Shown: positions 1-62,582 of the stretch, piece by piece
Layout: each line of letters starts with the position of its first letter
Numbering within the stretch: position 1 is the stretch's first letter
Notes under the pieces: model-generated
The model's database searches: none
Seen by the model: the letters and a program-made list of their open reading frames with translations, nothing else
Told to the model about the DNA's origin: nothing
From: Escherichia phage teqhad
Direction: 5' to 3' (one strand)
DNA: 64,000 nucleotides
Sequence record: NC_054933.1
Position numbers and translations under genes: made by a program

Positions 1-817
1 TAACTTTGAAGCCAAAGCCATGCTCACCACAAGCATCATCCCATGTAATGAAGCCTTTATCTTCAAGTGGGTCTAAGATTTTACTCACATAAGTTTCACG
101 ATCATACTTATACGGAATCTCAGTGATATTCATTTGAGTTCGTGAAGTAAACTTGTACGTTCCACGAATTTCATATTGACCGTCAATCTCAACGACTTCA
201 CCACGAAATTCTGGGAATTCTACCTTCGGTTTAGTTACTTTCTTTCCTTGAATAGCTTGCAGTACAGCTTTCTTGACAGAAGAAACACTATGAGGAAGAA
301 TGTAAGTTGCATAACCAGTTGCAATACCGGAAACACCATTAAGAAGAACAGTAGGAATAATAGGCAAATAGAAAGCAGGCGGAATGTGTTCTTTATCTTG
401 ATGTACTGGAGCATATTCAGTATCTTTATATACGTTATAGAAATTTTTACTTACACGAGCAAAAATATAACGACTAGCTGCTGCCTTTTGGACAGTACGA
501 GAACCGAAGTTTCCTTGACCATCTAACAAAGGAAAGTTATTATTCCAAGTATTAGCCATCAAAGCCCCTGCATCTTGTGCAGAGTTTTCACCATGGTGAT
601 ATCCAAGGTCCGCTACACCACCTGCAATAGAAGCAAGTTTGTGAAACTTATCTTTATTTCCTCGTGCCAAATCAAGAGCTCGAGCAATAACAAATCGTTG
701 AACTGGCTTAAATCCATCAATCATATTTGGAATAGCACGATTTTCAACCGTGTACATAGCATAAGCCAATGCTTCATTATCAATGATACTTTTTAAATCG
801 CGATTATTCAGTTGCAT
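1..817 (-). CDS. 52: DNA topoisomerase II medium subunit (gp52), N-terminal part; 3' end lies beyond the window start
   Basis: Minus-strand frame open to the window edge; ATG at 817..815; N-terminus MQLNNRDLKSIIDNEALAYAMY... is GyrA-like. Not in the ORF track because it is truncated. Confidence 0.85.
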   Translation of the reverse strand, partial: MQLNNRDLKSIIDNEALAYAMYTVENRAIPNMIDGFKPVQRFVIARALDLARGNKDKFHKLASIAGGVADLGYHHGENSAQDAGALMANTWNNNFPLLDGQGNFGSRTVQKAAASRYIFARVSKNFYNVYKDTEYAPVHQDKEHIPPAFYLPIIPTVLLNGVSGIATGYATYILPHSVSSVKKAVLQAIQGKKVTKPKVEFPEFRGEVVEIDGQYEIRGTYKFTSRTQMNITEIPYKYDRETYVSKILDPLEDKGFITWDDACGEHGFGFKV

Positions 818-821
818 AAAT

Positions 822-962
822 TTACCATACTAGTGAATGTAGTGCCATAATAACATCAGAAATGAAAAGCACGACTTGAATCAATCCGAACATTACTCCA
901 TAATATAGTGCTACTAATAAAGTAGCAAGGGCTAATGAATAGCCCAAGATTTTCTTAATCAT
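822..962 (-). CDS. small hydrophobic protein (46 aa)
   Basis: Hand-translated MIKKILGYSLALATLLVALYYGVMFGLIQVVLFISDVIMALHSLVW; its ATG overlaps the stop of the upstream ac-like ORF. Confidence 0.35.
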   Translation of the reverse strand: MIKKILGYSLALATLLVALYYGVMFGLIQVVLFISDVIMALHSLVW

Positions 963-1113
963 TAGTAGATAACAACACAAATGTTAAATATGCACACATA
1001 CCCTGAGCTAAAGCTTGCGAAAACACACTGCTAGCATCGATACAGATAGTTAAAACACATGCTACTATCCAACAAATAAATGAAATAACTCCTAATAATT
1101 TTGCAATATTCAT
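955..1113 (-). CDS. ac: small membrane protein, Ac-like (52 aa)
   Basis: Hand-translated MNIAKLLGVISFICWIVACVLTICIDASSVFSQALAQGMCAYLTFVLLSTND; GAGGAAAAT SD before the ATG; size and position between ndd/stp and 52 match T4 ac. Confidence 0.45.
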   Translation of the reverse strand: MNIAKLLGVISFICWIVACVLTICIDASSVFSQALAQGMCAYLTFVLLSTND

Positions 1114-1120
1114 ATTTTCC

Positions 1121-1201
1121 TCACTGGCGTCCGAAGACGCCTTTAGTTTTAAGATTATTACGATAGAACTGCATCACATGTTCGTTATGGAAATTACTCA
1201 T
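1121..1201 (-). CDS. stp: Stp peptide (26 aa)
   Basis: Hand-translated [26 protein letters not shown], matching my memory of T4 Stp; the ATG overlaps the ndd stop (TAATG). Confidence 0.7.
1124..1140 (-). other. GC-stem UUCG hairpin inside the stp coding sequence
   Basis: Plus strand GGCGTCCGAAGACGCC, a perfect 6-bp stem with a UUCG loop on the mRNA, overlapping the stp 3' end and the SD of the ac-like ORF. Confidence 0.45.
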
Positions 1202-1656
1202 TAATATGCCTGCAAAACAAATTTAAAGTTATCAGCCAACATACGGTTCATTTCTTCAAGTGTTTGATACTCAGAATGATGATTACGAGTAAACGCCAAA
1301 GCTAACTGACCTTTTCCAAATCCTGTCGTCAGAGGTTTCATCTTAGAAGCAGGCAGATAAAATACTGTGTATACCATATTGTTATTTGCAATAGTACGCG
1401 CAAGTTGAGACCGGCGTTGACGAATATGACTTAAAACCGCACTAAATCCTTGCTTAGAACGCTGATTACCTACATAAAATCGTGCAGATACGCATGGATT
1501 ACTAAATGGACCACCGAGTTTACTCACTAAAAAGTAAAATCCAGGTTTAGATAAAATATCTTTATGCGGAGTTCCCAAAAACCATTCACCACCCTTGATT
1601 GTACCAATAACAGTTGCGCCTGCATTATTCAGATCAGTAACAGTCATATATTTCAT
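1201..1656 (-). CDS. ndd: Ndd-like nucleoid disruption protein (151 aa)
   Basis: ORF 1201..1704 in track; preferred start is the internal ATG at 1656 with GAGGAAA SD (MKYMTVTDL...); size and position fit T4 ndd. Confidence 0.6.
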
Positions 1657-1716
1657 ATTAATTTCCTCTAAATTATTTTCTACTCCAAGGCCGCATGAAT
1701 ACACACGGCCATTAAA

Positions 1717-1932
1717 TTAATCGTCGCAGTCGACGCTCAATTCCCAAAACTCTTCTACGGTATAAGTTTCAGTATCATTTTCAATACAGAAACGTTCATT
1801 ACTGTTATTTGCTAAAGTAGCGTTAACTGTCGGTTTCTCGCTAGTGCTCTTAAGAGGTGAAATACGAATTAACTGATCACCGTTATCTAAACAGAAAATT
1901 TCACCAACTTTTACATCTTTAAAAATTTTCAT
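1717..1932 (-). CDS. hypothetical protein (71 aa)
   Basis: ORF in track; GAGGTG SD upstream of the ATG. Confidence 0.5.
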   Translation of the reverse strand: MKIFKDVKVGEIFCLDNGDQLIRISPLKSTSEKPTVNATLANNSNERFCIENDTETYTVEEFWELSVDCDD

Positions 1933-3575: not shown

Positions 3576-3595
3576 AAAAGGGCCGAAGCCCTTAT
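3576..3595 (-). terminator. intrinsic terminator-like hairpin (GGGC-UUCG-GCCC plus U-tract)
   Basis: Minus-strand RNA AAGGGCUUCGGCCCUUUUGUUUU just 3' of the 64-aa ORF. Confidence 0.55.
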
Positions 3596-9064: not shown

Positions 9065-9090
9065 ATTATACTCCGGTAATCATAAAGCTA
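9065..9090 (-). promoter_or_regulatory. middle-promoter-like element (MotA-box-like AGCTTTA, 12 bp, TATAAT)
   Basis: Minus strand AGCTTTATGATTACCGGAGTATAAT upstream of gene 39. Confidence 0.4.
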
Positions 9091-9110
9091 AAGGCCCGAA
9101 GGCCTTTTAT
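9088..9110 (-). terminator. hairpin AAAGGCC-UUCG-GGCCUUU
   Basis: Overlaps the stop of the lipoprotein ORF; followed by U-rich sequence. Confidence 0.45.
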
Positions 9111-20303: not shown

Positions 20304-20335
20304 AAATGAAAAAGGACTCCCGAAGGAGTCCTTGA
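20304..20335 (-). terminator. intrinsic terminator (GGACUCC-UUCG-GGAGUCC plus U-tract) downstream of soc
   Basis: Minus-strand RNA AAGGACUCCUUCGGGAGUCCUUUUUCAUUUU. Confidence 0.6.
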
Positions 20336-26243: not shown

Positions 26244-26588
26244 TTAAAAGAATTTAAATTTTTTCTTTGACCTTTTATTAAATGCATCTTGCAGTTGCAT
26301 TGTAATACATTTTTCTACATGAGGAGCTAACTCAGCTTTTCTTTCTTGGTCAAGAACAGCAAAGTCCATTACAACCTTTCCATCAACCCAATCCAGTTTA
26401 GTTACATACACTATATGTGTAGAACCATCTTCTAGTTTAATGACAATCTCCTGGATAACATTTTCCATAGCGGATTTAATTATCTTAAGAGATTCATTAA
26501 AAAGACGTTCTTTTCTTTCTTCTTCCCCCTCCGAAGAGGGGGATTCATCGATAATTTCTAGATCTAAATCTAAATCATCTTTATTCAT
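26244..26588 (-). CDS. 40: gp40-like protein (114 aa)
   Basis: Track ORF 26244..26606; the ATG at 26588 overlaps the uvsX stop; size matches T4 gp40. Confidence 0.55.
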   Translation of the reverse strand: MNKDDLDLDLEIIDESPSSEGEEERKERLFNESLKIIKSAMENVIQEIVIKLEDGSTHIVYVTKLDWVDGKVVMDFAVLDQERKAELAPHVEKCITMQLQDAFNKRSKKKFKFF

Positions 26589-41594: not shown

Positions 41595-41618
41595 TATATC
41601 AAACTCCGTATAAAGCTA
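41593..41618 (-). promoter_or_regulatory. middle-promoter-like element (AGCTTTA, 12 bp, TATAAT)
   Basis: Minus strand AGCTTTATACGGAGTTTGATATAAT upstream of the GIY-YIG gene. Confidence 0.4.
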
Positions 41619-41635
41619 AAGGGCCGAAGCCCTTT
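41618..41635 (-). terminator. hairpin GGGC-UUCG-GCCC immediately 3' of alpha-gt
   Basis: AAAGGGCCGAAGCCCTTT. Confidence 0.45.
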
Positions 41636-42836
41636 ATTTTGTAATAATGTCAAACTGTTCTTTAAAGCAGAAGCTTGAATCTTGATGCTGATACAAAAAT
41701 TCATATGCTTTTTCTCGCTCACGGTCATAAAGAGCTCGGTCAGATGACAGTTCTTTAATACGCTCAAATGTTGATTCCATATCATTTTCATCAAACCAAA
41801 TGATACCGCTATCATGCGAGGTCAAAGGAGTATTATCAACACGGAATTTTAAATTTTCGCCAGTAGATTTCCAAAATACCGGAATTGTTCCACATGCACC
41901 AAGCTCGAGATGAGTATATTCTAAAGAACGTTGTAGATATTTTTTATCCAACTTACTCAACTGATAACCAAAACCGGATTTACTCATGCGTTCAAGCATT
42001 TCGCTATTTACATAACGATCAAGAATTTGCGTTGGCAAATTAGGAGCAATTTTAATTTGGTCTACTTGATGAAGACGATAATACTCGTATGGAATTCCTT
42101 TTTCTTTAATAGGAATGAACGCTGGAGAACGTTCCAGACCTTCCATAATAGTACTTAGTCCTGCAGGTTTAAGATGTTTTTCATGAAAATCAAACATCTG
42201 ATAAAAACCTTTCCATGTAGTCGTACGACCAATCCATCGGTTGACATTCATGTTAATTTCAGAAACATCTTTCCAGTAGGTTGACCGAACCTTCGCAATA
42301 TCCATAGGAGGCTGAAAGTTATATACGGTCGGCGCTTCTTCAATATCATCAAACAAAGAAACTGTTTCAGGATACCATTCTTTCATCAGAACTTTATTAA
42401 AATCGCCATTATCAGAATGACTAAAAATAACATCAGCTCGACGAACAGTTTCTTCTAATCCCAAATTTCGGCGCAAAGAAAGAGAAGAATGGTCATGTTG
42501 ATAAACTACAACACGAACCGAAGGTTTAATGTTATCAATAATTTTTTTATAGTTATTAATAGTGTCTTCTTCAACTGAAGTAGCAGGAACTGAATTGATA
42601 ATTAGAATATCACAATCATTTACCAGCTTAAGTGTTTTATCGTATTCTTTTGCCAATAAAACCGGAATTGAAAATGATTTATAATCATGTGCGCAATTAC
42701 GAGTAAATGATTTATCTTTAGCATAAACCAAAGTTACTTCATGACCATTTTTAATAAACCAATCACGTTGCTCAAGAGAAAATTTAGTTACACCACAACC
42801 TTCAAGACCTCGAGCCATAAAAATACATACTTTCAT
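41634..42836 (-). CDS. a-gt: DNA alpha-glucosyltransferase (400 aa)
   Basis: 400 aa, MKVCIFMARGLEGCGVTKFSLEQRDWFIKNGHEVTLVYAKDKSF... matches the remembered T4 alpha-gt. Confidence 0.85.
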   Translation of the reverse strand: MKVCIFMARGLEGCGVTKFSLEQRDWFIKNGHEVTLVYAKDKSFTRNCAHDYKSFSIPVLLAKEYDKTLKLVNDCDILIINSVPATSVEEDTINNYKKIIDNIKPSVRVVVYQHDHSSLSLRRNLGLEETVRRADVIFSHSDNGDFNKVLMKEWYPETVSLFDDIEEAPTVYNFQPPMDIAKVRSTYWKDVSEINMNVNRWIGRTTTWKGFYQMFDFHEKHLKPAGLSTIMEGLERSPAFIPIKEKGIPYEYYRLHQVDQIKIAPNLPTQILDRYVNSEMLERMSKSGFGYQLSKLDKKYLQRSLEYTHLELGACGTIPVFWKSTGENLKFRVDNTPLTSHDSGIIWFDENDMESTFERIKELSSDRALYDREREKAYEFLYQHQDSSFCFKEQFDIITK

Positions 42837-42887: not shown

Positions 42888-42907
42888 ATAGGAGCCGAAG
42901 CTCCTAT
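42888..42907 (-). other. hairpin GGAGC-UUCG-GCUCC
   Basis: ATAGGAGCCGAAGCTCCTAT upstream of alpha-gt. Confidence 0.4.
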
Positions 42908-58552: not shown

Positions 58553-58582
58553 AAATAAAAAAGGGAGCCCGAAGGCTCCCTA
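58553..58582 (-). terminator. intrinsic terminator (GGGAGCC-UUCG-GGCUCCC plus U-tract)
   Basis: Minus-strand RNA AGGGAGCCUUCGGGCUCCCUUUUUUAUUUC. Confidence 0.6.
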
Positions 58583-62554: not shown

Positions 62555-62582
62555 ATGAAAAAAGTCTCCCGAAGGAGACTAA
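62555..62582 (-). terminator. intrinsic terminator (GUCUCC-UUCG-GGAGAC plus U-tract)
   Basis: Minus-strand RNA AGUCUCCUUCGGGAGACUUUUUUCAUUUU. Confidence 0.6.

Follow-up and report, generated by a model that had tools for sequence, protein, structure and literature searches.

A C(UUCG)G hairpin encoded by the last codons of stp in a T4-type phage

The stp locus

The window analyzed here, a 64,000-nt stretch of Escherichia phage teqhad (NC_054933.1), carries on its minus strand the gene order ndd-stp-ac-52.1-52, which is the order of T4 (Table 1). Over the 951 nt from 800 to 1750 the identity to T4 is 97.3%, and hundreds of relatives match likewise. The genes are tightly packed. The ndd stop codon UAA (1203-1201) and the stp AUG (1201-1199) share bases as UAAUG, and the 7 nt between the stp stop and the ac AUG (1113-1111) are occupied by the ac Shine-Dalgarno (SD) sequence. 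A preliminary description of this DNA had placed the stp feature at the correct coordinates and left its strand unstated.

The same description had recognized the 26-codon ORF as T4 Stp, and the comparison bears this out. The peptide shares 26/26 residues with T4 Stp, the DNA differs at two synonymous sites, synteny is kept, and the T4 reference annotates the corresponding position as stp. Furthermore, the peptide matches the anticodon nuclease activator family Nuclease_act (Pfam PF08133) with 75.3 bits over residues 1-26 of 26, where the curated cut-off is 25 bits, and PHROG 6763 with E = 4e-21. The peptide, the overlap with the upstream ndd and the downstream genes ac, 52.1 and 52 are thus shared with T4 and we see no difference of substance; the window carries T4 stp, in a phage closely related to T4.

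Stp is the 26-residue T4 inhibitor of type IC restriction (EcoprrI) and activates the PrrC anticodon nuclease. Its functional core comprises the N-proximal 18 residues, whereas the tail is polymorphic and loss of the 8 C-terminal codons cuts activity just moderately (PMC3014915, a review, after Penner et al., 1995). The N-proximal 18 residues encoded in the window are identical to those of T4 Stp. Given the 100% peptide identity, the protein probably inhibits EcoprrI/EcoR124I and activates PrrC as well.

Table 1. Features at the stp locus and their positions in the window.
Feature	Position	Strand	Remarks
ndd, nucleoid disruption protein	1201..1656	minus	directly 5' of stp
stp CDS, 26 codons + UGA	1121..1201	minus	translation, T4 identity, Pfam PF08133, PHROG 6763
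C(UUCG)G hairpin GGCGUC-UUCG-GACGCC	1126..1141 (reads 1141->1126)	minus	stp codons 21-26
hairpin 5' arm GGCGUC	1141-1136	minus	
hairpin loop UUCG	1135-1132	minus	
hairpin 3' arm GACGCC	1131-1126	minus	
stp stop codon UGA	1121..1123 (1123-1121)	minus	overlaps ac SD; direct sequence reading
ac Shine-Dalgarno GAGG	1119..1122	minus	3 nt 3' of hairpin, 5 nt 5' of AUG
ac, acridine resistance, small membrane protein	955..1113	minus	52 aa here vs 51 aa in T4
gene 52.1, small membrane protein	822..962	minus	3' of ac
gene 52, topoisomerase II medium subunit	start near 818, continues past window start	minus	

Stp-like peptides are also found outside the T4 family, as small and mostly unannotated ORFs in Kagunavirus, Veterinaerplatzvirus and Tunavirus (L080 1501-1578 in Kagunavirus K1ind2; L081 1501-1581 in Tunavirus LHE71; further loci L019-L023, L026, L030-L045 and L054-L076). 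All match PHROG 6763, and they keep an N-terminal core of ~14-18 residues followed by variable tails. The form in Kagunavirus and Veterinaerplatzvirus has 18 residues followed by (T/A)KGVFGK, and the form in T1-like Tunavirus reads MS(S/N)WHNEH(V/I)MQFYRxRIKK(I/M/L)LNSTNC. A literature search returned no paper linking Stp with any of these three genera.

A UUCG hairpin in the coding tail of stp

The last six sense codons of stp, GGC GUC UUC GGA CGC CAG (GVFGRQ), contain the perfect UUCG hairpin that had been pointed out in the preliminary description. It has a 6-bp stem, and the local fold reaches a minimum free energy (MFE) of -11.5 kcal/mol with z = -3.25 against shuffles. Every stem base has a pairing probability of 1.0 in a 201-nt context, and the fold of the whole region (121 nt, 1095-1215) has a z of -1.21. 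All 16 nt lie within the stp CDS, 2 nt lie between the stem and the stop codon, and the T4 reference genome has the identical 16 nt. The hairpin had also been thought to overlap the SD of the next ORF, which the sequence does not confirm: the stem ends at 1126 and is followed by A1125, G1124 and U1123 before GAGG begins (1122-1119), so that the ac SD is overlapped by the stp stop codon and not by the hairpin. One further candidate interaction, a long-range one between stp codons 4-5 and the ac SD, is present in the MFE structure of the 121-nt fold, is absent from its centroid and was rejected. A search of window positions 800-1800 with the Rfam 15 covariance models gave no match at E <= 1.

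The hairpin is one of a group. The minus strand has 12 perfect UUCG hairpins with a stem of 6 bp or more and the plus strand none, where ~0.2 are expected for both strands together, and UUCG accounts for 12/55 perfect tetraloop hairpins in the window, the runner-up loop for 3. All 12 are strand-specific C(UUCG)G hairpins with UUCG on the early (minus) strand. Hyperstable CUUCGG hairpins were reportedly described in T4 mRNA by Tuerk and colleagues in 1988. The T4 class is also recounted in a later publication (PMC4371310). The stp hairpin resembles that class in its UUCG loop, C-G closing pair, G+C-rich stem, early strand and position at a cistron 3' end. It differs in three respects: it lies wholly inside a CDS whereas the T4 class is mostly intercistronic, its stem is GGCGUC instead of the usual (A)AGGGC...GCCCUU, and its stem is followed only by a ribosome-binding site (RBS), without a U-run or promoter. 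The majority of the other UUCG hairpins in the window begin within -3 to +6 nt of the stop codon that closes the upstream ORF; downstream of them stands a U-run, an RBS or a MotA-box-like promoter. Located at the 3' end of its gene, the stp hairpin belongs to the T4 CUUCGG class and is stable, strand-specific and codon-engineered.

Further UUCG hairpins in the window lie at 41617-41636, 42888-42907, 9090-9107, 62563-62580, 58562-58581, 20312-20333 and 3578-3593. The stems apart from that in stp are mainly of the (A)AGGGC...GCCCUU type, and some take in the UAA stop codon of the upstream gene. Subtypes can be told apart by what stands 3' of the stem. In some, a MotA-box-like GCTTTA and a -10 element follow directly, resembling a unit of hairpin plus middle promoter; in others, T-runs follow and give a terminator-like appearance. 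A second C(UUCG)G hairpin within a CDS is located in gene 40 (26524-26543, minus strand; UCCCCCUC-UUCG-GAGGGGGA, 8-bp stem), at about codons 16-22 of the reading frame for the gp40 head vertex chaperone and ~50 nt past the uvsX stop. Its rare codons are TCC (0.046), CCC (0.021), TCG (0.042) and GGG (0.057).

Peptide and probable RNA constraints on the stp tail

The peptide GVFGRQ can be written in 1536 synonymous ways, all of which were evaluated, with probabilities weighted by codon usage. The native encoding ties for the most stable, and it draws on the rare codons GGC (0.116), GTC (0.077), TTC (0.259) and CGC (0.102). A perfect Watson-Crick stem has a weighted probability of 2.8e-4, and a stem with the UUCG loop in addition one of 7.3e-5, both values referring to a hairpin that was chosen post hoc from the 64-kb window.

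Part of the structure comes with the peptide, and the hairpin might thus be functionless, an accidental or hitch-hiking result of a palindromic peptide (G-V-F-G-R-Q) in a young clade. The amino acids fix 2/6 pairs, and for each other pair one side is given by the first two codon positions of Gly, Val, Gly, Arg and Gln; with G·U allowed, 9% of codon-weighted encodings pair throughout. Against this by-product stand the weighted probability of 7e-5 for an all-Watson-Crick encoding with UUCG loop, which takes four rare codons, and a loop type and strand that fit a class enriched ~50-fold. Other phages provide an independent view of the same peptide. Kagunavirus K1ind2 and many contigs of ~44 kb end their Stp-like peptide in ...KTKGVFGK, written GGR GTG TTT GGA AAA, and this coding, checked for structure, gave no hairpin (fold z -0.56). 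Since these phages write the same GVFG(K) without a hairpin, the peptide does not force the structure. The codons of the GVFG tail differ synonymously between lineages, and therefore the tail is under protein-level constraint. At the level of sequence comparison, this shows the hairpin to be an RNA-level feature of the T4 lineage that is additional to the peptide constraint.

Conservation and variation among relatives

The hairpin is kept in three genera of the Tevenvirinae. It is identical in T4-type Tequatrovirus including PST and UFV-AREG1, and the other relatives carry single changes: position 16 C>U in Dhakavirus MX01/WG01 and contig L062, 15 C>U in Gaprivervirus ECML-359 and 3 C>U in contigs L024/L025 (each giving G·U), 12 A>G in contig L065 (U·G) and a UUUG loop in Gaprivervirus SP18. 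In Dhakavirus MX01/WG01 the stop codon becomes UAA and Stp has 25 aa. Among 16 distinct sequences from Tequatrovirus, Dhakavirus and Gaprivervirus, 100% of the alignment cells pair. Stem variation affects four pairs, on one side only and always toward G·U, and no compensatory double change occurs among the 16. Scans of metagenomes and IMG/VR added more variants, none of them stem-disrupting or compensatory within the hairpin-bearing clade.

This one-sided G·U variation is consistent with a conserved structure and is not proof of it. The stem changes are all transitions, mostly toward preferred U-ending codons, and hence mutation bias and codon preference could suffice without selection; shuffle controls for covariation are uninformative because every variant still pairs. 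Third-position diversity in 22 related sequences is 0.106 in the hairpin codons vs 0.19 in invariant N-terminal codons, which is suggestive of an additional constraint on the former.

Conservation of the hairpin, on which the preliminary description had made its interpretation depend, does not extend to all relatives. T6, T2, ZCEC15 and LF73P3 have no stable structure at this place (fold z -0.72), their Stp tail reads NFG(I/V)LGFK.., and their ac SD is GAGGAG. As these T6/T2-type phages manage without the hairpin, it is not essential. A 61-nt probe centered on the hairpin matches ~534 phage records and Stp is matched in ~612, so most but not all stp-bearing phages have the T4-type junction. 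The SD of T6 (L003 540-560) and T2 (L077), which lack the hairpin, contains GGAG, which is not present in the T4-type GAGGAA. GGAG is the target motif of the RegB endonuclease.

The absence of compensatory covariation and the existence of T6-type phages without the hairpin agree with a structure that merely accompanies the peptide. Yet the hairpin persists over three genera while flanking codons and neighbor genes turn over, and together with the codon statistics above this leads us to consider a functionless by-product quite unlikely. The hairpin appears to be under selection as RNA.

Relation to ac translation

The preliminary description had proposed structured-RNA control of the downstream ac gene, and some features of the junction speak for it. 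The stem ends 3 nt from the SD, which the stp stop overlaps, and the ac AUG follows 7 nt past that stop. Furthermore, conservation across the junction is highest in a block of 31 nt that runs from the hairpin through stop, SD and spacer to the AUG, and downstream genes diverge right after the ATG. T4 hairpins that sequester an RBS control translation, for example in the early transcripts of the lysozyme gene e. The stp hairpin resembles these as a stable local hairpin near a translation start. It differs in that at stp-ac both SD and AUG lie outside the stem and are predicted to be unaffected by it, and thus it is not an operator that occludes the RBS. The mean unpaired probability from SD to AUG, modeled in the 201-nt context, is 0.33 for the native sequence and on average 0.344 for the 1536 recodings, among which the native ranks at 0.49. 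In the model the hairpin thus neither exposes nor hides the ac RBS, and with an accessibility that is average among the recodings, the idea of an insulator or occluder was dropped.

Comparison of relatives points in the same direction. The ac gene owns a normal RBS (GAGG with 5-nt spacing), and T6/T2-type phages maintain the stp-ac arrangement without the hairpin. In contig L062, stp with its hairpin is followed by TGAGGAAATTATG and then by CAACCGATTT...; in phage VR5 that gene and its TGAGGAAATTATG RBS recur behind an unrelated ORF, with neither stp nor hairpin. The comparison of VR5 with L062 indicates that stp, and not the gene behind it, is what the hairpin travels with. Neither the predicted accessibility nor the relatives therefore support direct structural control of ac by the hairpin. 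Translational control in a wider sense, in which the hairpin would limit access of free 30S subunits and so couple ac to stp, or would act as a backstop after termination, faces the same observations and is in our estimate rather unlikely. A kinetic effect of the hairpin on termination-reinitiation would be compatible with these computations. In a more specific variant, the dual-coded stp tail would refold at once in the wake of a ribosome terminating at the UGA within the ac SD and channel it to the AUG 7 nt on, or else would delimit immediate-early from delayed-early RNA; we give this a slim chance.

Possible gene exchange and termination at the stp-ac junction

The junction block TGAGGAAA(A/T)TATG is invariant in 16 distinct relatives save one A>T change in the spacer, and the gene that follows the block of hairpin and TGAGGAAAATATG varies. 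It is ac, an ac paralogue (MKFVHGIAFF..), or a gene starting MVILVFIEL.. or MQSVFTFIW.. (L004 548-703 in PST; L006 714-866 in UFV-AREG1; L007/L008 548-709; L009 545-682). These are small predicted membrane proteins of ~45-55 aa whose sequences part right after the ATG. A tandem duplication of the module occurs in two IMG/VR genomes (L024 and L025, positions ~400-1080; a 170.5-kb Tevenvirinae genome), with the order ndd, stp, ac-like gene, a truncated 52.1 joined to an stp remnant without start codon, a membrane ORF, 52.1 and 52. The stp remnant retains hairpin and RBS, and the duplication junction is the microhomology GAGTAAT.

Such turnover raises the question of whether the block of hairpin and RBS acts at the DNA level, as a homology patch for swapping the small membrane-protein genes 3' of stp. 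The divergence of the downstream genes straight after a conserved ATG, the extra ac paralogue in PST and UFV-AREG1, and the duplicated remnant with its hairpin and RBS in L024/L025 all fit a recombination junction. PeSL cassettes of T4-type phages are likewise stem-loops placed where downstream gene content varies between relatives (PMC2839356; PMC4122927), and they are documented in the T4/PST pair (PMC4122927). However, a PeSL has a sigma-70-like early promoter after its stem, whereas only 12 nt of SD and spacer separate the stp stem from the ac ATG and a scan of this interval for promoter-like sites listed none; moreover, the stp stem-loop is part of a gene. It is hence not a PeSL, and the stp-ac junction is not discussed in the PeSL paper. 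The L024 junction lies at GAGTAAT and not at the hairpin, any conserved RBS would yield the 31-nt block as a by-product, and a strand-specific UUCG loop indicates a function at the RNA level. To a role as recombination junction we accordingly assign a low probability.

Some GenBank records tag the hairpin automatically as a putative terminator, and a consensus scan calls the plus strand terminator-like. The hairpin could then act either as an antisense terminator on the plus strand (GGCGTCCGAAGACGCC followed by TTTAGTTTTA) or as an inefficient terminator on the early strand that parts immediate-early ndd/stp from delayed-early ac/52.1/52. On the early strand the stem is followed by AGUGAGGAAAAU and thus by no U-tract directly 3', as an intrinsic (Rho-independent) terminator would have. 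On the plus strand the T-rich tail corresponds to Lys-Thr-Lys codons, Gaprivervirus and L059/L062/L063 do not conserve it, the loop is CGAA and not a special tetraloop, and the genes within ~1 kb upstream are all antisense. The plus-strand candidate was rejected on its unconserved T-tail and its loop, which is ordinary on that strand, and we regard termination in either form as very unlikely.

A proposed role in the early transcript

Taking the observations as a whole, we favor, with confidence a little above even, the explanation that stp has a tail that doubles as a UUCG hairpin for mRNA punctuation at the end of the cistron. The last six codons do two jobs, encoding the GVFGRQ tail and, via rare C-ending codons, giving the early mRNA from the minus strand a C(UUCG)G hairpin of 6 bp; members of this class seem to punctuate early T4 transcripts just past stop codons. 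The 7 nt from the stp stop to the ac AUG are filled by the SD and leave no intercistronic room, which accounts for the placement of the hairpin inside the stp tail. This tail is a portion of Stp that is fairly tolerant of deletion.

As mRNA punctuation or protection, the hairpin may serve as a fast-folding, exonuclease-resistant clamp. Such a clamp would shield the upstream ndd-stp segment from 3'->5' decay, and after cleavage in the AU-rich AAUCUUAAAACUAAA just upstream it would cap the 5' end of the ac-52.1-52 segment. The ac ribosome-binding site would not be occluded in the process, and the net effect would be stabilized segments of the ndd-stp-ac-52.1-52 early transcript. A literature search for T4 Term-seq or 3'-end data on which this could be mapped found none.

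Implications for T4-type phages

The stp gene with the function of its peptide, and likewise the CUUCGG hairpins, belong to classic T4 biology and are already known; with the same 16 nt present in the T4 reference, the discovery value is small. The locus nevertheless illustrates cleanly how rare synonymous codons can build an RNA structure into a coding tail, with unrelated phages encoding the same tail unstructured, and the comparison of relatives speaks against direct control of ac. If the stp tail did channel the terminating ribosome or mark a transcript boundary, T4 would use a hyperstable tetraloop within a CDS as a device for translational coupling or transcript boundaries, and a further case of it would be the UUCG hairpin within gene 40, which closely follows uvsX. 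Finally, the Stp-like ORFs in Kagunavirus, Veterinaerplatzvirus and Tunavirus bear on the spread among coliphages of anti-type-IC restriction and hence of PrrC triggering.
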